Part shown: positions 13,238 to 29,178 of the stretch, piece by piece
How the letters are laid out: the number at the start of each line of letters is the position of its first letter
Numbering within the stretch: the first letter of the stretch is position 1
Assembly: GCA_018671515.1 (NCBI GenBank)
Contig: JABHHN010000080.1
Span: 21,695 to 85,694 of the forward strand
Length of the DNA stretch: 64,000 nucleotides
Direction: 5' to 3'
Source of the DNA: an archaeon
GTDB taxonomy: Archaea > Nanobdellota > Nanobdellia > Woesearchaeales > GW2011-AR15
Made by a program: the position numbers and the translations under genes
Notes under the pieces: model-generated
Database searches by the model: none
Seen by the model: only the letters and a program-made list of their open reading frames with translations
Told to the model about the DNA's origin: nothing

Positions 13238-13248
13238 TTTTATATATA
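13238..13248 (+). promoter_or_regulatory. TATA-like box for a leaderless transcript starting at the leader ORF
   Basis: TTTATATATAA is centred about 28 nt upstream of ATG 13271. cdc6 shows the same geometry (TTTTTAAACC about 27 nt before ATG 47789). Confidence 0.3.
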
Positions 13249-13270
13249 ACTTAACAATTACATAAACCCT

Positions 13271-13360
13271 ATGTATAGCAATATCGAGCATATGAACTTG
13301 AATTTTGAGAATAAGTTAGATGCATTTACATTTTGGTTTACATATTTCTTTTTTTATTAA
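13271..13360 (+). CDS. candidate aromatic-rich leader peptide (29 aa) of the aromatic amino-acid operon
   Basis: Hand translation gives MYSNIEHMNLNFENKLDAFTFWFTYFFFY-stop. Nine of the last 11 codons are Phe/Trp/Tyr. It lies in a ~380-bp gap 5' of the first pathway gene. Confidence 0.4.
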   Translation: MYSNIEHMNLNFENKLDAFTFWFTYFFFY

Positions 13361-13432
13361 CGGTCTGGTTAAGATTAACAAAAATCTTGCAAGATGTTAA
13401 AAATTTAAATTTTTAATTTCTAAACCGGACCG
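13361..13432 (+). promoter_or_regulatory. stem-loop immediately 3' of the leader ORF stop
   Basis: CGGTCTGGTT (13361-13370) pairs with AACCGGACCG (13423-13432) as 10 bp with 6 G-C pairs and 1 G.U. It is the only GC-rich element in the gap and encloses mutually exclusive small AT hairpins. Confidence 0.45.
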
Positions 13433-13491: not shown

Positions 13492-14511
13492 ATGATAATT
13501 GTAATGAAACCAAATACAGTAAAAGAAAACATAGATAAAGTAATCAAAAAAATTGAAGACAATGGACTTAAATCAGTTCCATTATTCGGTACTGAAAAGA
13601 CAGTCATAGCAGTCATTGGAGATTCTAGAAAATATGCAGTTGAAGGATGGAAAGCAATGATTGGTGTTGAGAGTGTCACAAAAATCCTAAAACCATACAA
13701 ACTTGCAAGTAGAAGCCATAATCCAAAAGGTACAATTATAAAAGTTGATGATGTAGAAATTGGAAATGGTAAATTTATAGTCATGGCAGGACCATGTTCA
13801 ATTGAAAGTGAAGAACAAATTATGGAATCTGCAAAAATATTAAAAGATCGAGGAATAAAAATACTTCGAGCTTCTGCATTCAAACCAAGATCTTCTCCTT
13901 ATGCTTTTCAAGGAATGGGTATTGAAGGTCTAAAATTATTAAAAAAAGTAAAAGATGAAACTGGATTAATTGTTGAAACAGAAGTTATGGATGTTCGTGA
14001 TGTAAAGATTGCTGCTGAATATGTTGACATATTAAGAGTTGGTGCAAGAAATATGCAGAATTTTGATCTTCTAAAAGAACTAGGAAGAATAAAAAAACCT
14101 GTAATCTTAAAACGTGGATTAAGTGCTACAATTGATGAATTCATAATGGCTGCAGAATATATACTTTCTGAAGGGAATCCAAATGTCATATTCTGTGAAA
14201 GAGGAATTAGAACTTTTGAGACAAAAGCATATAGAAATACAATGGATATTGCTGCTGTACCTGTACTAAAAAAATTAACACATTTACCAGTAATTGTTGA
14301 TCCAAGTCATGCTGCAGGAAATAGAGAATTAGTATTACCTCTTAGTAAAGCTGCTGCTGCAATTGGTGCTGATGGAATTTTAGTTGAAGTACATCCTAAT
14401 CCTGCACAAGCAATAAGTGATGGAGCGCAAAGCTTATATCCTGAACAGTTTGATGAATTATTAGAAGGTATAAAACCAATATGTAAAGCTGTAGGAAAAG
14501 AGATATCATGA
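13492..14511 (+). CDS. aroF: 3-deoxy-7-phosphoheptulonate (DAHP) synthase, type I-beta with N-terminal regulatory domain
   Basis: N-terminal ferredoxin-like/ACT-like domain (MIIVMKPNT...) followed by a KDO8PS-like barrel (MAGPCSIES, KPRSSPYAFQG, GARNMQNF, DPSHA). ATG 13492 follows a GGTGA SD. Confidence 0.85.
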   Translation: MIIVMKPNTVKENIDKVIKKIEDNGLKSVPLFGTEKTVIAVIGDSRKYAVEGWKAMIGVESVTKILKPYKLASRSHNPKGTIIKVDDVEIGNGKFIVMAGPCSIESEEQIMESAKILKDRGIKILRASAFKPRSSPYAFQGMGIEGLKLLKKVKDETGLIVETEVMDVRDVKIAAEYVDILRVGARNMQNFDLLKELGRIKKPVILKRGLSATIDEFIMAAEYILSEGNPNVIFCERGIRTFETKAYRNTMDIAAVPVLKKLTHLPVIVDPSHAAGNRELVLPLSKAAAAIGADGILVEVHPNPAQAISDGAQSLYPEQFDELLEGIKPICKAVGKEIS

Positions 14512-15611
14512 AAATAAAAGTTGACTTAAAAAAAGAAATTGATGATTCCTATAATATAAGTATAGGAAAAAATCTTTTTTCTCAAATTTTATCTTTTTTA
14601 AAAGAGAGAAAAGAAATTGGAAAGATAGCTATAATTACTGATGACAATGTAAAAAAATTACATGGAATACAATTAAAAGAAAATTTAGAAAAAGAAGGAA
14701 TTTTATGTTATCTAATTTCTTTTAATCATGGAGAAAAAAACAAAAATAGAAAAACAAAACAAAAACTAGAAGATTCGCTTCTTGATTTGGGTTTTGGACG
14801 TGACTCTCTTTTGATTTCTCTAGGTGGAGGAGTTGTTGGTGATATGACTGGATTTGTTGCTTCAACACTAAATAGAGGAATTCCATATATACAGATTCCA
14901 ACAACATTACTTTCAATGATTGATAGTTCTGTTGGTGGAAAAACAGGAGTTGACACAAAACAGGGGAAAAACCTTATTGGGACATTCCATCAACCAGAAG
15001 CAGTATTCATAGATATCAATTATTTAAACACTTTACCACAAAAAGAATTCATAAATGGAATGGCAGAACAAATAAAACATTCTATAATCTCTGATTTAGA
15101 TTTGTTTAGTTTCATAGAACAAAATTTGGATTCTATATTAAAAAAAGAAGAAAAAACATTGTTGAAATGCATAACCAAAAGTTGTAAAATAAAATCTAAA
15201 ATAGTTAATCTAGATGAAAAAGAATCTGATGGAATAAGACAAATATTAAATTTTGGTCACACAATTGGTCATGTTATTGAAAAAGAATCTAAATTTAAAA
15301 TACCACATGGATTTGCAATATCTATAGGTATGTCAGTAGAAGCAAAAATTGCAAATGAATTAGGATTAATTGATAAATTAAGTATTGAAAAAATTGATTC
15401 GTTATTGAAAAGAACAAGACTTTTTATTAAAGTTCCAAAAGAAATTTCTACAAATAATATTATGAAGAGTCTATCTCTTGATAAAAAATCTAAAAAAGGT
15501 ATCCCTAAATTTATTCTAATAAGTGGAATAGGAAAAGTAAAAAATAAACCTAATTATTCACATTTTGTAGATGAAAAAATAATAATTAAATCAATAAATG
15601 ATTCAAAATGA
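14508..15611 (+). CDS. aroB: 3-dehydroquinate synthase
   Basis: GGGVVGDMTGFVAST...IQIPTTLLSMIDSSVGGKTGV. ATGA overlap with the upstream gene. Confidence 0.9.
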   Translation: MKIKVDLKKEIDDSYNISIGKNLFSQILSFLKERKEIGKIAIITDDNVKKLHGIQLKENLEKEGILCYLISFNHGEKNKNRKTKQKLEDSLLDLGFGRDSLLISLGGGVVGDMTGFVASTLNRGIPYIQIPTTLLSMIDSSVGGKTGVDTKQGKNLIGTFHQPEAVFIDINYLNTLPQKEFINGMAEQIKHSIISDLDLFSFIEQNLDSILKKEEKTLLKCITKSCKIKSKIVNLDEKESDGIRQILNFGHTIGHVIEKESKFKIPHGFAISIGMSVEAKIANELGLIDKLSIEKIDSLLKRTRLFIKVPKEISTNNIMKSLSLDKKSKKGIPKFILISGIGKVKNKPNYSHFVDEKIIIKSINDSK

Positions 15612-16891
15612 AAACTTACGAAATAATTCCAATAAAAGAATTGAATGCTGAAATAGAAATACCTGGAAATAAATATATTGCTAATAGGTTATTGATAATT
15701 GCTTCTCTTGCAAAAGGAAAATCAATCTTGAAAAATCTTCCTGACAACCAAGACATAAATAATGCCATTAATGTAATACAAAAATTTGGAATCAAAATTG
15801 AAAAAAATGGAAATGACTTAGTGATTTATGGTAACGGCGGTGAATTAAAAACACCTAATGAAGAAGTAAATGTAGGTGAATCTGGGACTTTCATGAGATT
15901 CATAACTGGTTTTTCAACTCTAATCAAAGGAAATGTTAAAATTACTGGTGAAAATAAGATTAAAGAAAGACCAATTAAAGAATTATTAGATGCATTCTGT
16001 GATTTAGGTGTTAATGCAAAATCTTTAAATGATATATACCCACCTATTGAAATAAATAGTAATGGACTTGCTGGTGGAAAAATAAAAATTCCTGGAAACA
16101 TTTCCAGTCAATATATCAGTTCAATTCTTTTAGTTGCACCATATGCAAATTCAGATGTAGAAATTGAAATTACAATTCCACTTGTATCAAAAAAGTTTGT
16201 TGATTTGACAATCGATTGTATGGAAAAATTTGGTGTAGTTGTAGAAGAAAAAGAGGATTATAAAAAATTTATAATCAAATCTGGCCAAAGATACAAACCA
16301 AAAGAATATACAATACCTTCAGACTGGGCTTCTGCAAGCTATTTCTTTGCATTAGCTGCTATTTTACCTGGTTCAATAAAAGTTATGAATCTTGATTTAA
16401 AATCTCCGCAAGGAGAATCTGAATTTCCAGATCTTCTTGTAAATATGGGTTGCATGTATAGAAGAAATCATAAATGGCTTCAAATAACAGGTCTTGGAAA
16501 TCTTAGAGGAATAAATATTGATATGTCTGATATGCCTGATGTAGTCCAAACTCTAACAATCGTTGCTGCTTTTTGTAAAGGAACTACCACTATAAGAAAT
16601 ATTGAACATTTAAAATATAAAGAAAGCGATAGAGTAAAAGATACTGCAGAAGAATTAAAAAAATTAGGTATTGATGTAGAATATAATGAAAATGAAATAA
16701 AAATTACTGGTGGAAATATTTCTCCTACAATTATTGATTCTCATAATGATCATAGAATGGCTATGTCTTTTGCTATCGCTGGACTAAAAGTTCCTGGAAT
16801 TAAAATCACGAATCCTGATTGTGTTTCAAAATCATTTCCTGGATTCTGGAATAAATTAAAAGAAATTGGAGCTGAAATAAAAAGTGTCTAA
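15608..16891 (+). CDS. aroA: 3-phosphoshikimate 1-carboxyvinyltransferase (EPSP synthase)
   Basis: 427 aa with IANRLLIIASLAKG, ESGTFMRF and DHRMAMSFAIAGL motifs. Confidence 0.9.
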   Translation: MKTYEIIPIKELNAEIEIPGNKYIANRLLIIASLAKGKSILKNLPDNQDINNAINVIQKFGIKIEKNGNDLVIYGNGGELKTPNEEVNVGESGTFMRFITGFSTLIKGNVKITGENKIKERPIKELLDAFCDLGVNAKSLNDIYPPIEINSNGLAGGKIKIPGNISSQYISSILLVAPYANSDVEIEITIPLVSKKFVDLTIDCMEKFGVVVEEKEDYKKFIIKSGQRYKPKEYTIPSDWASASYFFALAAILPGSIKVMNLDLKSPQGESEFPDLLVNMGCMYRRNHKWLQITGLGNLRGINIDMSDMPDVVQTLTIVAAFCKGTTTIRNIEHLKYKESDRVKDTAEELKKLGIDVEYNENEIKITGGNISPTIIDSHNDHRMAMSFAIAGLKVPGIKITNPDCVSKSFPGFWNKLKEIGAEIKSV

Positions 16892-16895
16892 AGAA

Positions 16896-17372
16896 ATGGC
16901 AAATGCCATAATAAAAAAAGGCGATAAAATACTTATCATAAAAAGAAGTGATATTCCGATTTGGGAATTTCCATCTGGAAAAAAAGAAAATAATGAAACA
17001 TTCAAACAAGCAGCAATTAGAGAAACAAAAGAAGAAACAGGACTTGTTGTAGAAATTGAATATGAACTTGGAAAATATGAAAATAAATTATTATTTAGAA
17101 ATGTCATAAGTAAAACATTTGTATGCAAAATAAAAAGTGGAAAAATAACAAAAAATAGAGAAGTTATAGATTTCAAATTTGTAGATCCAAAAAAATTACC
17201 AAGTGATTTTGGATTTTGGTTAAAATCTACAACTAATGATTTTATAAAAAATAAAAAAAATGTTAATATAAAACAAAAATTTGGATTAATCACATGTTTT
17301 AAGTTCTTAATAAAAAATCCTCATTTTAGTTTTTATCCATTTTCAATATTAAAAAATTTAATCCGAAACTAA
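16896..17372 (+). CDS. NUDIX hydrolase
   Basis: Nudix box GKKENNETFKQAAIRETKEETGL. The start is ATG 16896, or alternatively GTG 16884. Confidence 0.75.
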   Translation: MANAIIKKGDKILIIKRSDIPIWEFPSGKKENNETFKQAAIRETKEETGLVVEIEYELGKYENKLLFRNVISKTFVCKIKSGKITKNREVIDFKFVDPKKLPSDFGFWLKSTTNDFIKNKKNVNIKQKFGLITCFKFLIKNPHFSFYPFSILKNLIRN

Positions 17373-17374
17373 AA

Positions 17375-17884
17375 ATGAAAAATATTTATTTAATAGGGTA
17401 TAGAGCAACTGGAAAATCTACTGTCTCTAATATAATAAAAGAAAAACTAGGAAAAGAAGTCATACATATGGATGATGAATTAATAAAAAAGATTGGAGAA
17501 ATAGGTAAATTTGTATCTATTAATGGATGGGATGCATTTAGAGATGAAGAATCAAAATTATTGAAAGAAATATCAAAAAAAAACAATATAATTATTGATT
17601 GTGGTGGAGGTATAATTGTCAGAGATAAAAATATTGAACTGATTAAAAAAACAGGAATTTGTTTTTGGTTAAAAGCATCAGCATCTACCATTGCTAAAAG
17701 ATTAAAATCTGATAAAAAAATTATCAGACCTTCATTAACACAAACAAAATCAACAATAGATGAAATTAAAGAAGTATTGAATAAAAGAATTCCTCTATAT
17801 GAAAAAACATCAAATTATCAAATTGATACTGAAAATAAAAGTATTGGAAAAATTACTGATGAAATTATGGAGTTGCTAAAATGA
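17375..17884 (+). CDS. aroK: shikimate kinase, bacterial P-loop (AroK/AroL) type
   Basis: MKNIYLIGYRATGKSTV Walker A, ~170 aa, CGGG motif (IIDCGGGII). Confidence 0.85.
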   Translation: MKNIYLIGYRATGKSTVSNIIKEKLGKEVIHMDDELIKKIGEIGKFVSINGWDAFRDEESKLLKEISKKNNIIIDCGGGIIVRDKNIELIKKTGICFWLKASASTIAKRLKSDKKIIRPSLTQTKSTIDEIKEVLNKRIPLYEKTSNYQIDTENKSIGKITDEIMELLK

Positions 17885-19368
17885 CAAGAATTTGTATTCC
17901 TATTGTAGCAGAAACTATAGATAATTTCATAAAAGATATAAAAAAGGCAGAAATTTTAAGTGACTTAATTGAACTAAGAATTGATTATATTAAAGATTTT
18001 AAAATTGATAAACTTGAAAAACTGATTAAAAATTGTACTAAAGATTTTATTATTACTTGTAGACCAAAAAATAATGGTGGTAAATTTGAAGGTAATGAAA
18101 AAGAAAGAATTTCTATTCTTGAAAAAGCAATTGATTTAGAATGTCCATTTATTGATTTAGAAATAGAAACTGAAAATAAAACTATATTAAACTTAATCAA
18201 TAAAAAACAGAAAACAAAAATTATCCTATCTTACCATGATTTCAAAAAAACTAATTCTCTCAAAAAACTAAAGATAAAATATGATGAAATGAACTCTTAT
18301 TTTCCTGATTTTTTAAAAATTGTAACTTATGCAAATTCTATAAATGATAATTTTAATATATTTAGTTTGTTAAATGAAAAATCAAATCTAATATCTTTCT
18401 GTATGGGAATAAGAGGTCATATTTCAAGAATATTAACTGCAAAATATGGTTCATATATTTCATATGTTTGTTTAGAAGAAGGAAAGGAATCTGCAGATGG
18501 ACAGATAAGTGCAAAATATATTGAAGATGTATATAATTTTTCATCTATTAATAAAGAAACAAAAGTTCTTGGTGTGTTAGGTAGTGTTGCAGAAAACTCA
18601 AAATCTAAATTCATGCATAATGCTAATTTCAAAAAGAAGAAACTAAATTTTATTTATATACCATTTAAAGTAAGAAAAGAAGAATTAAAAGAACTTATTA
18701 AAAATTTTAAAATTTTTGAATTCAGAGGTGGAGCTGTCACTATTCCACATAAAGAAGACATTATGCAATATTTTAATAATATTGATAATACTGCAAAAAT
18801 TATTGGAGCTACAAATACTTTTGTAAATGATAATAGTATTTTTAGTGGACATAATACTGATTATTATGGAGCAGAACATGCACTAAAAGAAATCACAAAA
18901 TTAAAAGATAAAAAAATTCTTGTAATAGGTGCAGGTGGAGCTGCAAGATCTTTATGTTATGTTCTAAATAAAGAAAAATCAAATTTTACAATAATAAACA
19001 GAACATACGAAAAAGCTAAATTACTTGCAGATGAATTCAATGGTTCTTGTTCTAAATTTAAAGAATTAAAAAAAGAAATTAATAATAATGATATAATAAT
19101 TAATACAACTAGTGTTGGGATGAATCCAAACAATAATGAATGTATTATTGAGGAGAAAATATTTCCAAAAAATAAAATAATAATGGATATGGTTTACAAT
19201 CCTATTGAAACTGTCCTTATTAAATTAGCAAATAAAAATAATTGTACAATTATTACCGGAGATAGAATGCTTGCTTATCAAGCAATTGGACAATTCAAAC
19301 TTTGGACAGGAGTTGATCCTGATTTTGATTTAATGCAAAAGGCTTTGCTGGAGCATTTAGATGAATGA
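17881..19368 (+). CDS. bifunctional type I 3-dehydroquinate dehydratase / shikimate 5-dehydrogenase (AroD-AroE fusion)
   Basis: 495 aa. The N-terminal half is AroD-like (ELRIDY..., SYHDF). The C-terminal half is AroE-like (VLGSVAENSKS, NTD..G, VIGAGGAARS Rossmann, MVYNP). Confidence 0.85.
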   Translation: MTRICIPIVAETIDNFIKDIKKAEILSDLIELRIDYIKDFKIDKLEKLIKNCTKDFIITCRPKNNGGKFEGNEKERISILEKAIDLECPFIDLEIETENKTILNLINKKQKTKIILSYHDFKKTNSLKKLKIKYDEMNSYFPDFLKIVTYANSINDNFNIFSLLNEKSNLISFCMGIRGHISRILTAKYGSYISYVCLEEGKESADGQISAKYIEDVYNFSSINKETKVLGVLGSVAENSKSKFMHNANFKKKKLNFIYIPFKVRKEELKELIKNFKIFEFRGGAVTIPHKEDIMQYFNNIDNTAKIIGATNTFVNDNSIFSGHNTDYYGAEHALKEITKLKDKKILVIGAGGAARSLCYVLNKEKSNFTIINRTYEKAKLLADEFNGSCSKFKELKKEINNNDIIINTTSVGMNPNNNECIIEEKIFPKNKIIMDMVYNPIETVLIKLANKNNCTIITGDRMLAYQAIGQFKLWTGVDPDFDLMQKALLEHLDE

Positions 19369-20239
19369 TTTAATTGGAGTCGGACTAGGAATACTAAGTG
19401 GACTATTAGATGCGACAAAAAATGCATTATTTAGGTATTCTAAAAACAAAGTCGATCCTTTAACTTTTGGTCTTTACGGTGTATTTATTGCAACATTGAT
19501 TATGCTACCAATTCTTTTGTTTCATGGAATTGTTATTTTAAATGTAAATTTCTGGTATTCACTTATTGCTGTCACATTTTTAGATGGGATTTCATCTCTT
19601 ATGTATATCAAGGCAATTCAGATTTCTGGATTAAGTAACACTGTTCCACTTATAACTATAACACCAATATTTATTGTAATAATTGAATTTTTTATTTTAG
19701 GAGATATTCCTTCAAAATTAGGATTCTTAGGAATATTTTTGATTGTCATAGGTGCTTATTTACTTAATTTCAAAAAAAAGAATAAAAATTATTTGGAACC
19801 TTTTAAAAGTTTAATGAATGATAAAGGATCCAAGACAATGCTAATTGTATCTTTTTTGTTTGCTGTCGTTGCAATTTTATATAAGACTGGAATAAATGCT
19901 TCAGATGAAATAACTTTTTTTTCATTTGCTGTATTTTCTATCTTTATTTTCTATTTTTTTATTGCATTATTTAAAATAGATTGGAAAACATTTGTTAAAG
20001 CTAGAAAGTACTTTAAAATATTTTTTTTTACTTCAATCATTGGAACTATTGGTTCATTATTGACTACATTTGTTATGAAAATAATATATGTTAGTTATGC
20101 AATATCTTTAAAGAGACTTTCAGTTTTATTTAGTGTATTAATTGGATTTTTGATATTTAAAGAAAAAAATTTCAAAGAAAAAATAATAGGAAGTATCATT
20201 ATGGTAATAGGAGTATTAATAATAGGTTTATATGGGTGA
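19361..20239 (+). CDS. EamA/DMT-family transporter
   Basis: 292 aa with ~10 TM and a two-EamA-repeat pattern. Confidence 0.65.
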   Translation: MNDLIGVGLGILSGLLDATKNALFRYSKNKVDPLTFGLYGVFIATLIMLPILLFHGIVILNVNFWYSLIAVTFLDGISSLMYIKAIQISGLSNTVPLITITPIFIVIIEFFILGDIPSKLGFLGIFLIVIGAYLLNFKKKNKNYLEPFKSLMNDKGSKTMLIVSFLFAVVAILYKTGINASDEITFFSFAVFSIFIFYFFIALFKIDWKTFVKARKYFKIFFFTSIIGTIGSLLTTFVMKIIYVSYAISLKRLSVLFSVLIGFLIFKEKNFKEKIIGSIIMVIGVLIIGLYG

Positions 20240-20245
20240 GAAAAT

Positions 20246-21337
20246 ATGTCAGGAGATTCATTTGGGAAATTATTCAAAGTAACAAATTGGGGAGAAAGTC
20301 ATGGAAAAGCAATAGGTATAATTATTGAAGGGTGTCCTCCTCTTCTTAACATTACTGAAAAAGAAATTCAAAAAGAGCTTAATAGAAGGACACCGGGCCA
20401 AAGTAAAATAACTACTCAGAGAAAAGAACCAGATAAAGTTGAAATCATTTCTGGAGTGTTTAATGGAAAAACCACTGGAACTCCTATATCTATGATAATC
20501 CATAATACTGATTTCAAAAAAGAAGATTATAAAGAAATAAAAACAAAATATAGACCAAGTCATGCTGATTTTACTTATGATAAAAAATATGGAATAAGAG
20601 ACCCATCAGGTGGTGGAAGAACATCTGCTAGGATGACTGCTGGAAATGTTGCTGCAGGAGTAATCGCTAAAAAAATATTAAAAGAAAAATTCAAAATTGA
20701 AATAATTGCATATGTTAAAACAGTAAGGAAAATTGTTGCAGATATAGATCCATATGATGTTACTAGAGAAGAAGTTGAACAAAACATTATAAGATGTCCA
20801 GATAATAAAAAAGCAATAGCTATGCAAAGATTGATTTCTCGAGAATTAAGCTATGGTGATTCCTTAGGAGGAATTATTGAATGTGTTATAAGAAATGTGC
20901 CTATTGGATTAGGTGAACCAATATTTGATAAAATAGATGCAGATTTAGCAAAAGCAATGTTATCAATAAATGCAACAAAAGGTTTTGAAATTGGAAGTGG
21001 TTTTTCTGGAACAAAAATGCTTGGTAGTGAACATAATGATCCATTTGTGATAGAAAAAGGAAAAGTTGTAACTGAAACAAATAATTCTGGTGGAGTGCAA
21101 GGTGGAATCACCAATGGTATGCCTATTATTTTTAGAGTAGCATTCAAACCTACATCTACAATAAGTCAAAAACAAGATACTATTGATAATAAAAATAAAG
21201 AAGTTGTTATTGAAGGAAAAGGAAGACATGATCCTTGTGTACTTCCTAGAGCTGTTCCTATTGTTGAAGCAATGTCTGCATTGGTGTTATGTGATCATTA
21301 TATGAGACATATTGCACAATGTGGTGATATAAAATGA
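20246..21337 (+). CDS. aroC: chorismate synthase
   Basis: [27 protein letters not shown] and GRHDPCV motifs. Confidence 0.92.
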
Positions 21338-21606
21338 ATCTTGAAGATGCAAGAAAAAAAATTGATGATATAGATACTAATATTATAGATCTTCTTTCAA
21401 AAAGACTTTCGTTTGTAAGTGTAATTGCAAGATACAAATTAAAGCATAATATTGATAGAAAAGATGAAAAAAGAGAAGAAGAAATATTAAAAAATAAAAC
21501 ATATTTAGGAGCTAAAAAAGGGCTTGATGATAAATACATAATAGATTTATATAAAAGAATTATTCTGGAAAGTCATATTATTGAAAAAAAAATCATGAAA
21601 AGGTGA
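21334..21606 (+). CDS. chorismate mutase (AroQ class)
   Basis: 90 aa with [20 protein letters not shown] helix 1. ATGA overlap with aroC. Confidence 0.8.
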
Positions 21607-21612
21607 ATTAAA

Positions 21613-22740
21613 ATGGAAGTTAGAAAAGATATATCTGAAATTAAACTTACAATTAGAAAAATAACTGAAATTGCTAAAGCAAAAAATAATTGTATCAGAT
21701 TTGATATTGGACAACCAGATTTTGATACACCTCAACATATAAAGGACGCTACAAATAAAGCACTTATGGATGGAAAGACAGGATATGGTCCTGTTCGTGG
21801 AGTGGATGAACTAAGAATTGCTATTGCTGAATATGAATCTCAAAAAGATGGACTTGATTTTGATGAATCAAATATAATCGTGACTACCGGTGGTATGCAT
21901 GCTTTATTTTCAGTATGTCTTGCATTTTTAGAAAAGGGAGACGAAGTAATAATTCCTGACCCTTATTGGGCCGCATATAATCTAATTATAAAATCTGTTG
22001 GTGGTGTTCCTGTTCCAGTACATTATGTCGATGATTCAAAACTTTTAATTGAAGAATTAGAACGTGCAATAACTTCAAAAACTAAATTCATATTTGTGAA
22101 TTCTCCTTCAAATCCAACAGGAGAAATATTAATAGATGAAGATCTTAAAAAAATTGCAGATTTAGCAGAAGAAAAAGACATAATAATAATTTCTGATGAA
22201 GTATATGAAAGAATGCTTTTTGGTGAGCATAAATTTTCAAGTATCGCTAAATATGCTCCTAAAAGAACATTAAGAATAAATTCTACTTCTAAGACATATG
22301 CAATGACTGGTTGGAGAATTGGATGGCTTACTGGAGATAAAGATTTGATTATACAAATTGCAAAATGTATTAGAGCAACTATTGCATGTGTAACTAATTT
22401 CATTCAATATGGTGCAGTTGCTGCATTAAATGGTCCTCAAGATGAAGCAATGAATATGAAAAAAGAATATGAAAAAAGATATGTTGCATTCAAAGAAAGA
22501 GTTGATAAGATTGGATGGACTTATTTAACACCAAAAGGAACTTTTTACATGTTTGTTGATACAAAAGAAGATTCATGGCCATTCTGCCTTAAGATGATAG
22601 AAGAAATAGGCGTTTCATCTGTTCCAGGGGCTGCTTTTGGTGATTTTGGAAAAACATATGCAAGATTCTGTTATGGAAGTGTTAGTGTTGATAAAATAAA
22701 TGAAGCATTTGATAGAATTGAAAAATGGTTAAAAAAATAG
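21613..22740 (+). CDS. class I/II pyridoxal-phosphate aminotransferase (aspartate/aromatic)
   Basis: NPSNPTG and SKTYAMTGWRIGW (PLP lysine) motifs. An AGGTGA SD lies upstream. Confidence 0.85.
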   Translation: MEVRKDISEIKLTIRKITEIAKAKNNCIRFDIGQPDFDTPQHIKDATNKALMDGKTGYGPVRGVDELRIAIAEYESQKDGLDFDESNIIVTTGGMHALFSVCLAFLEKGDEVIIPDPYWAAYNLIIKSVGGVPVPVHYVDDSKLLIEELERAITSKTKFIFVNSPSNPTGEILIDEDLKKIADLAEEKDIIIISDEVYERMLFGEHKFSSIAKYAPKRTLRINSTSKTYAMTGWRIGWLTGDKDLIIQIAKCIRATIACVTNFIQYGAVAALNGPQDEAMNMKKEYEKRYVAFKERVDKIGWTYLTPKGTFYMFVDTKEDSWPFCLKMIEEIGVSSVPGAAFGDFGKTYARFCYGSVSVDKINEAFDRIEKWLKK

Positions 22741-22741
22741 A

Positions 22742-23992
22742 ATGAAAACTAAAACCAATAATATTGAAGTCATGTCGCCTGCAGGATCATATGAAGCACT
22801 TCATGCTGCAATAAAAGCAGGTGCAAATTCTGTATATTTTGGTGTAACTCAATTAAATATGCGTTCTAGATCTTCTAAAAATTTCACATTAGAAGATCTT
22901 AAAAAAATAGCTAAAATATGTTCTGACAATGATGTAAAATCATACTTAACACTAAATACTGTAATGTATGAACACGATATGACATTGATGAAAAAAATAT
23001 GTGATACTGCAAAAAAATCAGGAGTGACTGCATTAATAATTTCAGATATTTCAGCAATGATGTATGCACATTCAATTGGCATAGAAATACATATTTCAAC
23101 ACAGGCAAACGTCTCTAATTTTGAAACTGTAAAATTCTATTCTCAGTTTGCAGATGTAATTGTACTTGCAAGAGAGCTTACATTATCACAAGTAAAAGAA
23201 ATTGTTAAAAAAATAAAAAAAGAAAAAATAGAAGGACCAAATAGAGAATTAGTCCAGATTGAACTTTTTGCTCATGGAGCAATGTGTATAGCAATTTCTG
23301 GAAAATGCTATATGAGTTTATCAACATATAATTCATCTGCTAATAGAGGTGCATGTCTTCAAAACTGTAGAAGATCATACAAAGTGACAGATTTAGAAAC
23401 TGGAGATGAGCTTGAAATTGATAATGAATATGTAATGTCTCCAAAAGATATGTGCACAATTGGTTTTATCGATAAAATGATTGAATCAGGTTCTGTTGTT
23501 CTAAAATTAGAAGGAAGAGGAAAAGCACCTGAATATGTATATACAGTTACAAAATGTTATCGTGAAGCTGTTGATTCATATTATAATGGAACTTATACTA
23601 AAAAGAAAATAAAAAAATTGACTGATGAATTAAAAACTGTATATAATAGAGGATTTTGGGATGGATATTATAGAGGGAAAAAATTAGATATGTGGGCAGG
23701 CGAATATGGCTCACAGGCAACTAAAGAAAAAATATATGTAGGACGTGCAGAAAATTATTATAAAAAATTAGGTATTGCACAATTCGGCCTTGATGCTAAT
23801 TCAATAAGAAAAGGAGACGATTTAATAATAACTGGACCAACTACCGGAATATTAAAACAAAAAGCAAAATCATTATTTATTAATGAAAAAGAAGTTGATA
23901 TCGCACCTAAAGGAAGTGTTGTTACATTTCCAATAAAAGAAATTGTAAGAAAAAATGATAAATTGTTCATTTACAAAGACATAAAAAAGTAA
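22742..23992 (+). CDS. peptidase-U32-family protein (TrhP/RlhA/UbiU-like putative Fe-S hydroxylase)
   Basis: N-terminus EVMSPAGSYEALHAAIKAGANSVYFG. Four Cys are spaced C-x6-C-x15-C-x3-C (CIAISGKCYMSLSTYNSSANRGACLQNC, about nt 23284-23370). Confidence 0.8.
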   Translation: MKTKTNNIEVMSPAGSYEALHAAIKAGANSVYFGVTQLNMRSRSSKNFTLEDLKKIAKICSDNDVKSYLTLNTVMYEHDMTLMKKICDTAKKSGVTALIISDISAMMYAHSIGIEIHISTQANVSNFETVKFYSQFADVIVLARELTLSQVKEIVKKIKKEKIEGPNRELVQIELFAHGAMCIAISGKCYMSLSTYNSSANRGACLQNCRRSYKVTDLETGDELEIDNEYVMSPKDMCTIGFIDKMIESGSVVLKLEGRGKAPEYVYTVTKCYREAVDSYYNGTYTKKKIKKLTDELKTVYNRGFWDGYYRGKKLDMWAGEYGSQATKEKIYVGRAENYYKKLGIAQFGLDANSIRKGDDLIITGPTTGILKQKAKSLFINEKEVDIAPKGSVVTFPIKEIVRKNDKLFIYKDIKK

Positions 23993-24157
23993 TGGTGAAT
24001 TGGAAATAAACTTACTAAAAGTTAGTAGATTTAATTTTTAATAAAAAAATGAAAATAAACTCACTAATGGTTCGTACTTTCCATTTTTTAATAAAAAAAT
24101 GAAAATAAACTCACTAATGGTTCGTACTTTCCATTTTTTAATAAAAAAATGAAAATA
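23991..24157 (+). repeat. 50-bp tandem repeat, ~3.3 copies (one degenerate, two identical, one partial that merges into the fdx start)
   Basis: Units 24041-24090 and 24091-24140 are identical (ATAAAAAAATGAAAATAAACTCACTAATGGTTCGTACTTTCCATTTTTTA). 24001-24040 is a diverged copy. 24141-24157 repeats the first 17 nt. Confidence 0.9.
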
Positions 24158-24370
24158 TCACATCAAAGAGATAAATGTATTGGATGCAATTCATGTGTTG
24201 AAGATGCTTCAGAATACTGGAAAATTTCCAAAGAAGACGGAAAAGCAGATTTATTAGGTTCAATAAAAAAAGGTAATTTTTATATCTTAGAAACTTCAAA
24301 TATTGACATTGAAAAAAACAAAAAAGCAGCAGAAATTTGCCCAGTAAATATTATAAAAATTTATGAGTGA
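24149..24370 (+). CDS. small mono-cluster ferredoxin
   Basis: 73 aa with CIGCNSC...CP (CPVNIIK), the pattern of single-cluster ferredoxins. Confidence 0.7.
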   Translation: MKISHQRDKCIGCNSCVEDASEYWKISKEDGKADLLGSIKKGNFYILETSNIDIEKNKKAAEICPVNIIKIYE

Positions 24371-24375
24371 TAATT

Positions 24376-25167
24376 ATGAAAATAGGTTTATTAGGTCCAG
24401 CAGGAACATTTACGGAAACAGCTTTAAATAAATATAATAAAATTGCTAAAAAAGTATTTTTAAAAAGCCATTTTGATGTATTTGATGCTGTTAATAATGG
24501 TCTAGTTGATAATGGAATTATTGCTATTGAAAATCAAATAAATGGTTTTGTTTTAGCAAATATTGATCTTTTTCTAAATACTAATATGAATATAATTCAA
24601 GAAATAATAATACCAATACATCATTGTCTTGCAATACCTATTGGTTGTAAAAAAATTAAAAACATTATTTCTCATCCACAAGCTCTTGCTCAATGTCAGG
24701 ATTATATTATAAAAAAATATCCAGGTGCCAGAAAAATTCCATCTGAAAGCACAGCTCGAGGAATGGAAGAAACTAAAATTATTAGTAATTCTGCAGGAAT
24801 TGGGCCTACGCTGGCTGCAGAAATGAATGATTTGAATATTATTGATAAAAATATTGAAGATTATAAAAAAAATGAAACAAGATTTTTTATAATAACAAAA
24901 AAAAAAACTATTAATAATAAAGGTAAAAAAACTAGTATAGTATTCATCTGTAAGCATGAACCTGGATCATTATATAATAGTCTAAAAGTATTTGCTAAAA
25001 ATAAAGTAAATCTACTTAATATTTTTTCAAGACCAATAAAAAATAAATCATGGGAATATTCATTTTATATTGAATTAGAAGGAAATGTCAATGGAAAAAA
25101 AATTATTGAATCTATTAAAAAATTAAAAGATCAAAGTTTAAAAGTAAATATTTTGGGATCATATTGA
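24376..25167 (+). CDS. pheA: prephenate dehydratase with C-terminal ACT domain
   Basis: MKIGLLGPAGTFTE, NETRFFIIT (TRF motif) and an ACT segment GSLYNSLKVFAKNKVNLLNIFSRP. Confidence 0.88.
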   Translation: MKIGLLGPAGTFTETALNKYNKIAKKVFLKSHFDVFDAVNNGLVDNGIIAIENQINGFVLANIDLFLNTNMNIIQEIIIPIHHCLAIPIGCKKIKNIISHPQALAQCQDYIIKKYPGARKIPSESTARGMEETKIISNSAGIGPTLAAEMNDLNIIDKNIEDYKKNETRFFIITKKKTINNKGKKTSIVFICKHEPGSLYNSLKVFAKNKVNLLNIFSRPIKNKSWEYSFYIELEGNVNGKKIIESIKKLKDQSLKVNILGSY

Positions 25168-25179
25168 TTTTTGATAAAT

Positions 25180-25189
25180 TTTAAATATA
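25180..25189 (+). promoter_or_regulatory. TATA-like box upstream of the Tyr-rich leader ORF
   Basis: TTTAAATATA is centred about 29 nt upstream of ATG 25214. Confidence 0.3.
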
Positions 25190-25213
25190 ACATACTACTA
25201 ACTTCAACGAATT

Positions 25214-25288
25214 ATGTCAAGAGATAAATCAAATATGGACTATGCAAAAGATTTATCTAGTGTAAACTTCTATTATTATTATCTATAG
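25214..25288 (+). CDS. candidate Tyr-rich leader peptide (24 aa) upstream of tyrA
   Basis: Hand translation gives MSRDKSNMDYAKDLSSVNFYYYYL-stop, with four consecutive TAT codons preceded by TTC. It lies in the 202-bp gap between pheA and tyrA. Confidence 0.35.
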   Translation: MSRDKSNMDYAKDLSSVNFYYYYL

Positions 25289-25318
25289 ATTTGATCTTAT
25301 TAATTTTAGGTCAAATCT
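25287..25318 (+). promoter_or_regulatory. hairpin overlapping the leader ORF stop codon
   Basis: AGATTTGATC (25287-25296) pairs with GGTCAAATCT (25309-25318) as 10 bp including one G.U, with a 12-nt loop. Confidence 0.4.
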
Positions 25319-25369
25319 CATATTGATAAAATAATTATAATTTATAAAAAAATTAATTATGGTGATAAT

Positions 25370-26200
25370 ATGAAAAATAAAATTGGAATAATAGGCGGAA
25401 ATGGCAGTATGGGCAAATGGTTTAGTAATTTTTTTTCTAATCTCGGTCATGATGTAATTATAAGTGATTTAGGAACTAAACTCAGCAATAAAGATGTTGT
25501 TGAACAATCTGATGTAATAATTATTTCTCTCCCTATGCAAATTGCACCAAAAATTGTTAAAGAAATTTCTAAATTTACTAAAGAAAATCAATTAATTATT
25601 GATATAACTGCATTAAAAGAAGAAATTGTAGAAAAACTTCTAAAAACTAAATCTGAAATTGTAAGTATCCATCCATTATATGGTCCATCATTAAAATCCA
25701 TATCTGGACAGACTGTTGTTGTATGTGATGTAAGAACAGATAAATGGAATGGATGGATTGAAAAAATTCTAAAAAAAGAAGGTGCTAAGATAAAAGAAGC
25801 AACACCAAAAAAACATGATAAAATGATGTCTGTAATTCAAGGTCTCACACATTTTAGTCTTATAAGTCTTGGTCATGCATTAAAAGAACTTGATATTGAT
25901 ATTGACGAGAGTCTGCAATACACAAGTCCGATATATAAAATAAGATTAGAAATGGTAGGAAGGATTTTGAATCAAAATCCTGTTGTATATTCAGATATAG
26001 CTATAAATAATAAAAATAGTAAAGACATCTTAAGTGTTATGATGAAATCTATGGATGAACTTAAAAAAATAATAAACAATAAAGATAGTGAAGGTTTTAT
26101 TGATTATTTCAACAAAGCATCAAATCATTTTGGTGAATTTAAAAAAGAAGCAATGATAGAAAGTGATAAAATGATAAAGGCGGTAAGTGAAGATGAATGA
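25370..26200 (+). CDS. tyrA: prephenate dehydrogenase
   Basis: GIIGGNGSMGKWF Rossmann fold, SIHPLYGP and HDKMMSVIQGLTHF. GGTGA SD at 25361-25365. Confidence 0.85.
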   Translation: MKNKIGIIGGNGSMGKWFSNFFSNLGHDVIISDLGTKLSNKDVVEQSDVIIISLPMQIAPKIVKEISKFTKENQLIIDITALKEEIVEKLLKTKSEIVSIHPLYGPSLKSISGQTVVVCDVRTDKWNGWIEKILKKEGAKIKEATPKKHDKMMSVIQGLTHFSLISLGHALKELDIDIDESLQYTSPIYKIRLEMVGRILNQNPVVYSDIAINNKNSKDILSVMMKSMDELKKIINNKDSEGFIDYFNKASNHFGEFKKEAMIESDKMIKAVSEDE

Positions 26201-27254
26201 AAAAATAATTGATGTAAATGTCTCAAATTATGAAAAAGTAATTGCTCCTTCAAAATTAAAAGAAGAAATGCCTCTTAATGAAGCAGGATCATTAATAGTT
26301 AAAAAAGCAAGAGAAAATATCAAAAATATAATGTCAGGAAAAGACAAAAGAAAGATAATAATAACAGGTCCTTGTTCAATTCATGACACAAAACAAGCAA
26401 AAGAATATGCTCAAAAACTTTCAAAATTATCAAAAAAAGTTAATGATAAGTTTGTAATAATAATGAGAGCTTATTTTGAAAAACCTAGAACTACAATTGG
26501 TTGGAAAGGTCTAATTAATGATCCAAATATTAATGGAACATACGATACAAATTTAGGATTAAAACTAGCAAGAAAAGTTTTACTTGATGCAATATCATTA
26601 GGAATCCCTTGTGGAACTGAATTTTTAGAACCATTCACACCACAATTCATTGATGATTTAATCTCTTGGGTAGGTATAGGTGCAAGAACTTCTGAATCTC
26701 CAACCCATAGACAATTAGCTTCTGGACTTTCATCTCCTGTTGGTTTTAAGAATAGTACAAATGGTGATGTCAAAGTAGCAATAAATGCAATAAAATCTGC
26801 TAGTGCTCCACAAGCTTTTTTTGGAATGGATGATGAAGGTATGGTTTGTAATGTTTCAACTAAAGGAAATAAATTTGGTCATATAATTCTTCGTGGTGGA
26901 AAAAATCCTAATTATTTCAAAGAAGATATTAAAAATATTCAAAATATGTTAAATGATACTAATCTAAATGATTCTATAATTGTTGATTGCAGTCATGGAA
27001 ATTCAGGTAAAGATCATAAAAAACAGTCTGATGTGTTTAATGATATAATAAATCAAATAAATAACGGAAATGACAAAATAATTGGAATAATGATCGAATC
27101 AAATATAAATGAAGGAAATCAAAAAATTCCAAATGATTTAACCGAATTTGATAGATTAAATCTTATACATGGGGTATCAATTACAGATGGTTGTGTTGAT
27201 TGGAATACAACTGAAAAAATGATACTTAATAATTATGATAAATTAAAAATATAA
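26193..27254 (+). CDS. aroG: DAHP synthase, type I-alpha (E. coli AroG/F/H-like)
   Basis: Near-collinear with E. coli AroG as I recall it: ITGPCSIHD, YFEKPRTTIGWKGLINDP, GARTSESPTHRQLASGLS, PVGFKN, IILRGG. The start is ATG 26193, or alternatively GTG 26187. Confidence 0.88.
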   Translation: MNEKIIDVNVSNYEKVIAPSKLKEEMPLNEAGSLIVKKARENIKNIMSGKDKRKIIITGPCSIHDTKQAKEYAQKLSKLSKKVNDKFVIIMRAYFEKPRTTIGWKGLINDPNINGTYDTNLGLKLARKVLLDAISLGIPCGTEFLEPFTPQFIDDLISWVGIGARTSESPTHRQLASGLSSPVGFKNSTNGDVKVAINAIKSASAPQAFFGMDDEGMVCNVSTKGNKFGHIILRGGKNPNYFKEDIKNIQNMLNDTNLNDSIIVDCSHGNSGKDHKKQSDVFNDIINQINNGNDKIIGIMIESNINEGNQKIPNDLTEFDRLNLIHGVSITDGCVDWNTTEKMILNNYDKLKI

Positions 27255-27321
27255 ATTGATTTAAAATGAAAGATATTATTAAAAATAATAAAAATATTCA
27301 AAGGATGAAGTTGATGACAAA

Positions 27322-27999
27322 ATGATAGGAACTATAGTAAATGTGATTGCAATAATTATAGGTTCTTTAATTGGTATTCTTTTTAATAAATTTATTCCTA
27401 AAAGAGTAAAAGAAATAATATTTCAGGCATTAGGGTTATCAACTATTTTAATTGGAATGCAATTAGCATTAAAAACTGAAAATGTATTGTTAGTCATTTT
27501 TAGTTTAATAATTGGTGGAATAATTGGAGAATTGATACATATAGAAAAAAAATTAAAAAAATTTGGAATTTCATTAAAAAAAAAATTAAAATCAAAAGAT
27601 TCTAAATTTGTAGAAGGATTTGTTACAACAAGTCTTCTTTTCTGTGTTGGTGCAATGGCAATTGTAGGCTCAATTGAAGACGGAATAAATAATAACCCTT
27701 CAATATTATTAACAAAATCCCTCTTAGATGGTTTTGCATCAATTGCTTTTGCAAGTGCTTTGGGTTTTGGTGTTATGTTTTCAGCAATCCCAATTTTAAT
27801 TTATCAGGGTGGTCTAACTTTGTTAGCTGTTTATATTAAACAATATTTGACTCCTTCTGCAATAACTGAAATGAGTGCTGTTGGTGGATTGTTAATTATT
27901 GGAATTGGATTAAGTCTTTTAAATATCAAAAAAATAAAAATTGGAAATCTGCTTCCTTCTGTTTTGGTAGCAGCCATATTAGCTATAATATTTATGTAG
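27322..27999 (+). CDS. DUF554-family membrane protein
   Basis: MIGTIVNVIAIIIGSLIGILF N-terminus, ~225 aa, multi-TM. Confidence 0.6.
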   Translation: MIGTIVNVIAIIIGSLIGILFNKFIPKRVKEIIFQALGLSTILIGMQLALKTENVLLVIFSLIIGGIIGELIHIEKKLKKFGISLKKKLKSKDSKFVEGFVTTSLLFCVGAMAIVGSIEDGINNNPSILLTKSLLDGFASIAFASALGFGVMFSAIPILIYQGGLTLLAVYIKQYLTPSAITEMSAVGGLLIIGIGLSLLNIKKIKIGNLLPSVLVAAILAIIFM

Positions 28000-28009
28000 G
28001 TGAAATAAA

Positions 28010-29095
28010 ATGAATGTTAATGAAAGATTAAAATTAATTAAAGAAGTTGGTGAAGAAATAGTCACCAATGATGAACTTAAAGCGCTTTTAAATGAAAAAG
28101 AAAAATTTGTTGCCTATGATGGTTTTGAACCAAGTGGAACAGATATTCACATTGCACAAGGTCTTCTTAGAGCTATAAATGTTAATAAGATGACAAAAGC
28201 AGGTGCACATTTTAAGATGTGGGTTGCAGATTGGCATGCATGGGCTAATAATAAGATGGGTGGAGACCTTGAAAAAATCCAATATGTAGGAAATTATTAT
28301 ATTGAAGTATGGAAAGCTTGTGGAATGGATTTAGATAATGTTGAATTTATCTGGGCAAGTGAAGCAATGGGTAAAAAAGAATATTGGAAAATTGTCATGA
28401 ATATTGCAAGAACATCATCACTAAATAGAATTATCAGATGTGGACAAATCATGGGAAGAAGTGAAAAAGATAATTTATCAGCATCACAAATTTTCTATCC
28501 TTGTATGCAAGCTGCAGATATATTCTACTTAAAGGCAGATGTAACACAGTTAGGAGTAGATCAAAGAAAAGTAAATGTTCTTGCTCGTGAAGTCGGCCCT
28601 AAACTTGGTTTTTGGAAACCTATAATTGTAAGTCATCATATGTTAATGGGATTAAATGAACCTCCAAAAGATTCAAAAGATATGGATGCAAAAGACAGAA
28701 CTATTGAATTAAAAATGTCAAAATCAAAACCAGATACTGCAATATTTATGACTGATTCTGAAAAAGATATCAAAAGAAAGATGAATAAAGCATGGTGTCC
28801 TCAAGGTCAGGTAGATGAAAATCCAATAATGGAATATTTTAAATATATAATTTTTGAAAAATATGATAAAATTGATATAAAAAGACCTGAAAAATTTGGT
28901 GGAGATTTAAATATTGGTAGTTATGATGAGCTTACAGAAATGTTTTCAAGTGGAAAAGTTCATCCAATGGATCTTAAAAATACTGCTGGTAATTATATCA
29001 ATGAACTTATTGATCCAATAAGAGAAAAATTACTAAATGATCCGAAAATAAAAGAAATGAGAGAGAAAATTCAGACATTTAAGGTGACTAGGTAA
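28010..29095 (+). CDS. tyrS: tyrosine--tRNA ligase (long archaeal form)
   Basis: YDGFEPSG..HIAQG, VADWHAW.NNKMGGDLEKIQ and a KMSKS motif (LKMSKSKP). Confidence 0.85.
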   Translation: MNVNERLKLIKEVGEEIVTNDELKALLNEKEKFVAYDGFEPSGTDIHIAQGLLRAINVNKMTKAGAHFKMWVADWHAWANNKMGGDLEKIQYVGNYYIEVWKACGMDLDNVEFIWASEAMGKKEYWKIVMNIARTSSLNRIIRCGQIMGRSEKDNLSASQIFYPCMQAADIFYLKADVTQLGVDQRKVNVLAREVGPKLGFWKPIIVSHHMLMGLNEPPKDSKDMDAKDRTIELKMSKSKPDTAIFMTDSEKDIKRKMNKAWCPQGQVDENPIMEYFKYIIFEKYDKIDIKRPEKFGGDLNIGSYDELTEMFSSGKVHPMDLKNTAGNYINELIDPIREKLLNDPKIKEMREKIQTFKVTR

Positions 29096-29178
29096 TTTTT
29101 TACTTTTTAATTATTTTTTTAATATTATATTCTAATTATAGAAAAGTTTTTATCTGTTTTTCATGTTTAATCTTTTTC

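Follow-up and report, generated by a model that had tools for sequence, protein, structure and literature searches.

A candidate tyrosine-sensing leader open reading frame with a stop-codon hairpin upstream of tyrA in a Woesearchaeales archaeon

Introduction

Can an archaeon sense tyrosine through a short open reading frame (ORF) that is read ahead of its tyrosine biosynthesis genes? This question is raised by the 202-nt gap between the TGA stop codon of pheA (25165-25167) and the ATG of tyrA (25370) in a 64,000-nt stretch of a Woesearchaeales genome (assembly GCA_018671515.1, contig JABHHN010000080.1, positions 21,695 to 85,694), hereafter called the window; coordinates refer to this window unless another locus is named. 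An earlier note, made from the sequence alone, had described in this gap a 24-codon ORF with a TTC and four TAT codons close to its stop, a TATA-like box and a Shine-Dalgarno (SD) sequence in front of tyrA, and every one of these features is found in the sequence.

There is good evidence that the gap holds what appears to be a real, selected, probably translated and Tyr-specific cis-element. The reading as a whole, i.e. a Tyr-sensing leader peptide on a leaderless mRNA that acts through ribosome stalling, is assigned a probability of about 0.6. The proposal that tyrA is preceded by a leader ORF specific for Tyr, with a hairpin and a TATA promoter of its own, is supported by the comparative tests presented here.

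Results

Anatomy and promoter geometry of the element

The features of the locus are collected in Table 1. The sequence TTTAAATATA at 25180-25189 contains a perfect archaeal-type 8-mer, TTTAAATA (25180-25187), which starts 34 nt before the leader ATG and has GATAAA upstream. The leader ORF is located 81 nt before tyrA, and its Tyr run is separated from the stop by a single codon (CTA). The hairpin had been described as a 10-bp stem (25287-25296 with 25309-25318) starting in the stop codon; the start is correct, and the stem is in fact one pair longer, with 11 bp including one U.G pair, a 10-nt loop, a stability of -11.5 kcal/mol and z = -4.1 (0/200 shuffles equally stable). It was assigned to the RNA of the + strand because the G.U pairs would become A.C mismatches on the other strand.

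An SD is missing from most genes that open a transcription unit in the window, and many of them show a TTTAAATA-like box some 30 nt ahead of the ATG. With one mismatch allowed at most, such a box is found at -28 to -36 for 14 of the 32 first genes, versus 12 of 149 intergenic ATGs. The two leader ORFs of the window, the one at 25214 and a second one at 13271 described below, share the geometry of first genes (box at -34 and -32, respectively). With a box at this distance, transcription would begin at the ATG or a few nt ahead of it and hence give leaderless mRNAs; the mRNA predicted to start at 25208-25213 would be leaderless or near-leaderless. The claim that the leader has a TATA promoter of its own agrees with this geometry of leaderless first genes and with the conservation of the box in a related locus. 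GGTGA SDs precede tyrA and the first 3-deoxy-D-arabinoheptulosonate 7-phosphate (DAHP) synthase, and similar SDs were seen by eye in the upstream sequences of several internal cistrons; since internal cistrons carry such SDs, those of tyrA and the DAHP synthase fit a second-cistron position behind leaders. The T5 run that abuts the pheA stop is possibly a weak archaeal terminator of the upstream aro transcript, a role that we infer from the sequence; the run is not conserved in the related locus L008.

Conservation at other tyrA loci

The closest relative of TyrA (P0002, 58% identical) is encoded on a 1.6-kb contig, L008; all others are at most 51% identical. A scan of genome contigs for closer relatives gave distant matches only, and a profile search with the TyrA N-terminus, aimed at truncated genes on short contigs, gave nothing closer than L008. 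Locus L004 is an identical copy of the window locus and uninformative. Peptides are given below up to their stop codon.

In L008, the gap before tyrA is 193 nt. It carries GGTAAACCTTAAATATAAC where the window has GATAAATTTTAAATATAAC, the ATG follows 32 nt after the box, and the promoter is conserved as G[AG]TAAA[TC][TC]TTAAATATAAC. The leader ORF (523-600, 25 aa, MALKKKLITDKKELLVSANFFYYYR, ending in NFFYYYR) has the codons TTC TTT TAT TAT TAT one codon before the stop, and the hairpin begins at the last base of the TAG. Across the last nine codons and the hairpin, 49 of 59 nt are identical between the window and L008; in the neighbouring pheA and tyrA, identity at third codon positions is only 53% and 48%, respectively. 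Pairing in the stem survives a compensatory double change (U-A to C-G) and a single one (A-U to G-U). No alignment is possible for the N-terminal half of the leader ORF or for the spacer that precedes tyrA; a variable N-terminal half would be as expected for a leader peptide.

A more distant third case, L030 (TyrA 45% identical), comes from a genome of 50% G+C. Here TTTATATT lies 31 nt upstream of the ATG of an 18-aa ORF (9901-9957, MSIAASTASALSARYYYL, ending in ARYYYL), of which the Tyr run, TAT TAC TAT, again stands one codon before the stop. A G+C-rich hairpin (GUCCGCG...CGaCGGAC), with a stem sequence entirely unlike that of the window, directly follows the TGA, and GGAGGT, tyrA and tyrS lie downstream. 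The three genomes thus have C-terminal runs FYYYYL, FFYYYR and RYYYL (window, L008 and L030), with four, three and three consecutive Tyr codons, TATA boxes at -34, -32 and -31 from the ATG, and hairpins that start -2 to +1 nt relative to the stop. The conservation check that the earlier note had proposed therefore comes out in its favour, as frame, Tyr run by the stop, TATA spacing and stop-codon hairpin are kept in L008 and L030. Its caveat, that (TAT)4 is also a low-complexity run of AT-rich DNA, was weighed as well: the Tyr run of L030 is not low-complexity DNA, because the genome has 50% GC and the codons are TAT TAC TAT.

At 14 other tyrA loci with a readable upstream gene, the gap is at most 21 nt long, is occupied by a gene for chorismate mutase or is filled by the tyrA frame extending further 5'. 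In L010, about 300 nt upstream of tyrA contain no leader, and no co-directional upstream gene is readable there. Apart from L010, all tyrA loci read that have a real empty gap (window, L008 and L030) carry the element. None of the 16 loci from a metagenome scan with the TyrA alignment has it, and tyrA abuts the upstream gene in nearly all of them. No leader was found upstream of tyrS in L005. Horizontal transfer from bacteria was considered and rejected; the single bacterial homologue context read (Spirochaetota, L031) has neither gap nor leader. As a separate observation, the promoter-like sequence CCTACTTGTCCG...TTTATAT occurs twice at L030 9470-9880, bracketing about 350 nt with repeated GTTCGC...GCGAAC palindromes just upstream of the Tyr leader; this segment may be an insertion, such as a miniature inverted-repeat transposable element, or a structured RNA.

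Sister leaders before common-pathway aro operons

The parallel that had been drawn with a mixed aromatic leader at 13271 extends beyond the window: all seven common-pathway aro operon starts read (7/7) have the same architecture, a short Phe/Tyr/Trp-rich leader ORF with a hairpin by its stop. In these aro-type leaders the aromatic codons lie 0-1 codon from the stop, the start of the hairpin ranges from 2 nt within the stop to 3 nt beyond it, and a TATA box is found about 30-39 nt before the ATG in six of the seven (L028 has no clear one). The hairpins have stabilities of about -9 to -16 kcal/mol, except for the longer, branched stem-loop of the window, which directly follows the stop with an outer stem at 13361-13432 (-24.3 kcal/mol, z = -5.7). 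The DAHP synthase behind this leader most probably starts at ATG 13492, behind a GGTGA SD; an upstream in-frame TTG at 13480 is the first start in the ORF list.

The leader peptides read MYSNIEHMNLNFENKLDAFTFWFTYFFFY in the window, MAHEKALNKDFFLVPYFYF in L006, ...DEFFLDRSCYFYFW in L025, ...NEFFLDKSFFYFYFR in L028, ...FKYFFFYFKY in both L026 and L027, and ...FKYFFFYFKF in L029. The group of L006, L025 and L028 has three hairpins with unrelated stem sequences. The leaders of L026, L027 and L029 differ from each other at first/second/third codon positions by 1/1/8, 4/4/11 and 5/3/6, mostly at third positions, and seven codons vary solely synonymously, including TTC to TTT and TAT to TAC exchanges in either direction. 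This third-position bias, together with the synonymous changes in aromatic codons, argues that the sister leaders are translated and that selection acts on their aromatic codons and not on a string of nucleotides.

Codon content follows operon content, which is counted in favour of a regulatory role. Aro-type leaders are rich in Phe and Tyr and occasionally have Trp, and their operons hold tyrA, pheA and often pheS/pheT. The leader before tyrA, the DAHP synthase gene and tyrS is dominated by Tyr, apart from one or two Phe codons that abut the Tyr run on its 5' side.

Three further observations concern the leader regions. First, in five leaders (window 25319-25325, L008 630-637, L025, L026 and L029) the sequence right after the stop-codon hairpin is (U)CAUUG or CAUAUUG, and L027 has UCAUUU there; the motif was considered as the beginning of another small ORF and as a pairing partner for the 5' end of the mRNA, and neither idea holds consistently across loci. 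Second, a conserved structured spacer separates the aro leader hairpin from the DAHP synthase in L026 (2625-2826) and L029 (3418-3604) and is absent from L027. It has compensatory helices (GGCTT..AAGCC vs GGTAAAAATC..GATTTTTACC, and GTTGCgaaGCAAC vs GTTCCgaaGGAAC) and an AUGAUGA C-box-like motif, and its sole Rfam match is a weak C/D-box (sR5, 16 bits). Third, runs of Phe codons make T6-T7 tracts in common-pathway leaders (window 13343-13357, L006 92-120, L027 and L029). These tracts resemble the signals that end ordinary genes here, and the regulatory codons could double as oligo-U terminators; the Tyr leader has no such tract.

Chance level of the signature

Taken alone, the element is suggestive only, being hardly beyond chance in DNA of 26% GC, and its significance rests on conservation in other genomes. 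Runs of the type (TAT/ATT/TTA)4 occur five times on the + strand of the window. Three of the 51 ATG ORFs of 8-60 aa in its approximately 5.5 kb of intergenic DNA have an aromatic run of at least four residues at the C-terminus, namely those at 13271, 25214 and 47589-47645. The last encodes MELIYKQKLSYYYYLFSI, is sited in the A/T-rich core of a probable replication origin, between inverted origin recognition box (ORB)-like repeats upstream of orc1/cdc6, and is a clear example of chance. The stability of the window hairpin is in the top 0.26% of 40-nt windows, yet about 30 other places match it.

The composite signature is far more specific. A blind scan covered 361 kb on both strands (722 kb) with 2810 ATG ORFs of 12-45 codons, using as criteria an aromatic C-terminus and a hairpin of -8 kcal/mol or lower that begins at the stop. 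Twelve ORFs match, ten of which are the tyrA-type and aro-type leaders; the remaining two are antisense within genes and have no TATA box. The null-model check suggested with the original proposal hence finds the combination nearly exclusive to leaders.

The region of the chance ORF is of interest in itself. A probable replication origin occupies 47473-47788, with an (AAATA)n-rich stretch enclosed by inverted ORB-like repeats of 29 nt (47568-47596 and 47705-47733). The gene orc1/cdc6 (47789-49009) lies directly downstream of it, and next come the genes for both subunits, small and large, of DNA polymerase D (49002-53956); the presence of orc1/cdc6 and a family-D DNA polymerase in the window is our own reading of the sequences.

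Gene neighbourhood of the leader

On the favoured reading, the leader heads its own transcription unit, in which leader, tyrA, AroFGH-type DAHP synthase, DUF554 protein and tyrS would form a coherent tyrosine unit (Table 1). The T runs after tyrS are its probable terminator. A tyrS gene is also found 3' of tyrA in L007 and L030.

Table 1. Features of the candidate tyrosine leader, its sister element and the adjoining genes in the window
Feature	Position	Strand	Basis or remark
Sister element	13240..13432	+	TATA TTATATAT at 13240; leader ORF 13271-13360, peptide MYSNIEHMNLNFENKLDAFTFWFTYFFFY; stem-loop; then DAHP synthase
pheA, prephenate dehydratase, last gene ahead of the element	24376..25167	+	Pfam PDT and ACT; NCBIfam NF008865, 238.7 bits vs cutoff 219
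T5 run	25168..25172	+	Abuts pheA stop; sequence; T5-T8 typical of gene ends in the window
Promoter resembling a B recognition element (BRE) and TATA box, GATAAA-T-TTTAAATATAA	25173..25190	+	Sequence, geometry, conservation in L008
Predicted transcription start	25208..25213	+	TATA centre + ~26 nt; leaderless geometry of other first genes
Leader ORF, peptide MSRDKSNMDYAKDLSSVNFYYYYL	25214..25288 (ATG 25214, TAG 25286-25288)	+	24 sense codons; in-frame counterparts in L008 and L030
Presumed regulatory codons TTC (25268-25270) and TAT x4 (25271-25282), F-Y-Y-Y-Y	25268..25282	+	Codons 19-23; then CTA, TAG
Hairpin	25287..25318	+	Begins at second base of leader stop codon; 25287-25297 pairs with 25308-25318
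A/T-rich spacer, poorly conserved, opening with CAUAUUG	25319..25360	+	Comparison with L008
tyrA Shine-Dalgarno, GGTGA	25361..25365	+	Sequence
tyrA, prephenate dehydrogenase	25370..26200	+	Pfam PDH_N and PDH_C; homologues named prephenate/arogenate dehydrogenase
AroF/G/H-type (class I-alpha) DAHP synthase	26187..27254	+	TIGR00034 aroFGH, 458.6 bits; overlaps tyrA end
DUF554 membrane protein	27322..27999	+	Pfam PF04474; adjoins tyrA in L007 too
tyrS, tyrosine-tRNA ligase, last gene of presumed Tyr unit	28010..29095	+	NCBIfam NF006330, 386.6 bits vs cutoff 220
T6, T5 and T7 runs after tyrS	29096..29122	+	Sequence

The G+C content across the window is 23-32%. Homologues of its TyrA bear the names Nanoarchaeota or Woesearchaeota, which places the host among the DPANN archaea and not among bacteria. 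Compared with L007 and L025-L029, the aro operon at 13480-29095 has an extra Nudix protein, EamA transporter, aminotransferase, U32 peptidase and ferredoxin, and it encodes two different DAHP synthases, a type I-beta enzyme with an FXD domain, encoded at the operon head, and the type I-alpha AroFGH enzyme behind tyrA. The other long gap of the operon contains, at 24035-24157, 2.5 copies of a 50-bp unit repeated perfectly in tandem. The repeat is a duplication of the upstream sequence and opening codons (ATGAAAATA...) of a ferredoxin-like ORF of 73 aa (24149-24370), which is inserted between the U32 peptidase and pheA. A gene for a Cas4/PD-(D/E)XK-type nuclease is located at 11329-12144 on the - strand (Pfam Cas_Cas4 and PDDEXK_1).

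Discussion

Proposed mechanism

We propose that the BRE/TATA promoter at 25173-25190 would start a leaderless mRNA at about 25210, and that ribosomes would translate the 24-codon ORF straight from the 5' end. When charged tRNA-Tyr is scarce, the ribosome would stall on the four UAU codons, 1-4 codons ahead of the stop. Its leading edge (about 12 nt beyond the A site) would then cover the 5' arm of the hairpin, no hairpin would form, and expression of tyrA, DAHP synthase and tyrS would stay high. When Tyr is plentiful, the ribosome would terminate and depart, and the hairpin would fold as an "off" element that lowers downstream expression. Among possible outputs, we lean towards premature 3'-end formation (termination or cleavage) ahead of tyrA, perhaps by an archaeal factor; a translational effect or control of mRNA stability would be the alternatives. 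The last aromatic codon ends 4-7 nt before the hairpin 5' arm, a geometry that is constant across leaders. Given the size of the ribosome footprint, a ribosome whose A site holds one of the last Tyr codons would shield or open up several bases in the 5' arm.

Several points weigh against this mechanism. The stalled and stop-codon states would differ in dwell time only, because the 5' arm is within the footprint of a ribosome at the stop codon as well. A scan of 25000-25500 for a bacterial-type terminator finds no hairpin with a T-run, and indeed no T-run follows the hairpin in the window (the next sequence is CUCAUAUUGAUAAAA) or in L030, which has no U-run at all before the SD. Gene ends in this genome are T5-T8 runs without hairpins. 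Archaeal RNA polymerase terminates at oligo-U without hairpins and is not known to need them; because of this, and because gene ends here lack hairpins, a terminator role of the hairpin is doubtful. No conserved alternative pairing of the antiterminator type was seen in the two or three sequences compared, a sample of low power. Sequestration of the SD was examined by partition-function folding with and without a masked ribosome footprint in nine leaders and rejected, as masking does not consistently open the SD across them; the unpaired probability of the tyrA SD/AUG does not change with the footprint mask (0.21 vs 0.22 in the window and 0.32 vs 0.29 in L008). Finally, there are just three tyrA-type examples, two of which are AT-rich with unchanged TAT codons, and YYYY ORFs such as that at 47589 do arise by chance.

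Only the stop-codon hairpin is conserved; the upstream stems of the window and L008 differ in sequence. A classical four-segment model was also considered, as an upstream stem of the window has a 3' arm (25250-25258) similar to the 5' arm of the stop-codon hairpin. This resemblance is treated as coincidence, because L008 shows no such relation. Likewise, UAUUAUC can by eye pair with GAUAAUA beside the tyrA SD of the window, a pairing that is not conserved in L008.

On balance, we consider the odds somewhat better than even that the leaders represent an archaeal form of ribosome-mediated sensing of aromatic aminoacyl-tRNA on leaderless mRNAs. The hairpin at the stop would be the effector, rather than part of a bacterial terminator/antiterminator switch, perhaps together with archaeal termination or cleavage factors that act on exposed RNA. 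The leaders would then make up an aromatic "ribulon" of these DPANN archaea, with Phe/Tyr/Trp leaders for the common pathway plus pheA, tyrA and pheST, and a Tyr-only leader for tyrA, DAHP synthase and tyrS.

Alternative explanations

The element could also be plain punctuation, in which the hairpin and T5 run end the aro-pheA transcript, the TATA box starts a tyrA transcript, and the ORF is incidental and conserved through overlapping DNA or RNA signals. The T5 run after the pheA stop and the conserved TATA box would suit this, as would a second TATA-like box, TTTATAAA at 25342, about 28 nt upstream of the tyrA ATG. When the window and L008 are compared, the Tyr run shows no synonymous changes and AAC TTC persists against the AT-rich codon bias, a hint of constraint at the nucleotide level. 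However, L030 has ORF, hairpin and tyrA though no co-directional gene ends nearby (the end of AspRS is 570 nt off), and hairpins are not characteristic of gene ends in this genome. ATG-TATA spacing, frame, stop and the Tyr run by the stop are retained in three genomes, and the aro-type leaders follow divergent genes or trmB and show third-position substitution bias. We therefore regard punctuation as unlikely, although it retains a real, small chance of being correct.

It is quite improbable that the element is a non-translated RNA, in which the UAU repeat and hairpin bind a Tyr-responsive protein (TRAP-like) or tRNA-Tyr directly and no ribosome is involved. TRAP in Bacillus binds (G/U)AG repeats, and the triplet repeat and hairpin are the best-conserved nucleotides here; moreover, no alternative-structure logic for a ribosome-driven switch was found. 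Yet the repeat is always in frame with an ATG at leaderless distance from the TATA box and 0-1 codon from the stop, and its changes are aromatic or synonymous rather than random (UAU to UUU in L008, UAU to UAC in L030). The sister leaders are non-repetitive F/Y mixtures that vary synonymously, and Rfam gives no match, T-box and known leader families included.

A functional Tyr-rich micropeptide, for instance one associated with an enzyme or a membrane, rather than a sensor, would account for the in-frame conservation of the ORF and for the 31-aa aro-type peptide that is conserved over its full length in L026, L027 and L029. This explanation is highly improbable: the tyrA-type peptides (24, 25 and 18 aa) share only the aromatic C-terminus and have unrelated N-terminal halves, residue composition follows the downstream branch of the pathway, and the strict abutment of hairpin and stop is left unexplained by a protein function. 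Chance, i.e. a (TAT)4 low-complexity run within an ATG ORF of AT-rich intergenic DNA, is effectively refuted despite five such trinucleotide runs per 64 kb and the unrelated YYYY ORF in the origin region, by conservation in L008 far above neutral expectation, presence in a 50%-GC genome and the specificity of the composite signature for leader sites.

Comparison with known systems

The stalling leader that we favour resembles the bacterial attenuators (trpL, pheL, hisL and thrL of E. coli) in having a short ORF just upstream of a biosynthetic operon, a cognate codon run near the stop, a hairpin 5' arm within reach of the stalled ribosome and a variable peptide N-terminus. Unlike these attenuators, it belongs to an archaeal host with a TATA promoter and a putatively leaderless mRNA, and it has no GC hairpin with a U-run and no detectable antiterminator or anti-antiterminator. 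Rfam gave no relevant match in the whole window at gathering thresholds, nor at 25100-25450 with E up to 10, T-box (RF00230) and the Trp, His, Thr, Leu and Phe leaders included.

The nearest described system is that of the leaderless polycysteine short ORFs, which are attenuators in mycobacteria and form a "Cys ribulon" (Canestrari et al., bioRxiv 10.1101/834739). Both have a first cistron, putatively leaderless here, with consecutive cognate codons and a sensory ORF per operon, and the likeness extends to the use of several operons, here with a common-pathway leader and a Tyr-branch leader. The mycobacterial system unmasks the ribosome-binding site that serves the next gene, whereas here no SD-sequestering duplex is predicted or conserved. 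The present system also differs in its conserved local hairpin that abuts the stop codon, and it belongs to another domain of life.

Two other types of control share its logic. T-box riboswitches of Firmicutes tyrS and aromatic genes likewise sense tRNA-Tyr charging in cis for tyrS and Tyr biosynthesis, but they bind uncharged tRNA via a specifier codon and the T-box sequence, without translation, and such a structure is absent here by the Rfam search. In E. coli aroF-tyrA, under TyrR, a DAHP synthase isozyme is co-regulated with prephenate dehydrogenase as it would be here. TyrR and the archaeal TrpY/TrmB-type factors are, however, DNA-binding proteins that act at the promoter, in contrast to an ORF with an RNA hairpin; a trmB gene adjoins several of the related aro operons.

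Significance

The literature searched contains no report of leader-peptide attenuation in Archaea, although its coverage is incomplete and an earlier description is possible. Ribosome profiling in Haloferax has revealed upstream ORFs, and small ORFs were called not well characterised in Archaea (PMC7261190). According to a 2021 paper, promoter recruitment is the only known target of regulation in archaea (PMC8448881). Post-initiation regulation of archaeal genes is barely documented. The most fitting description of the element before tyrA is leader-peptide control in a new, archaeal variant, and the element suggests that control by ribosome stalling on a leader peptide, so far known only from bacteria, is used by archaea too.

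If this is true, amino acid sensing by a stalled ribosome would extend to a second domain of life and would work there with the polymerase and ribosome of archaea and with leaderless mRNAs. The order of TATA box, about 30 nt, ATG, cognate codon run, stop and hairpin provides a signature with which to search for further sensors. The link of translation to transcription or RNA fate, and the roles of hairpins in archaea, would become directly testable, and genome-reduced DPANN archaea would be found to actively regulate one of the few biosynthetic pathways that they have retained.

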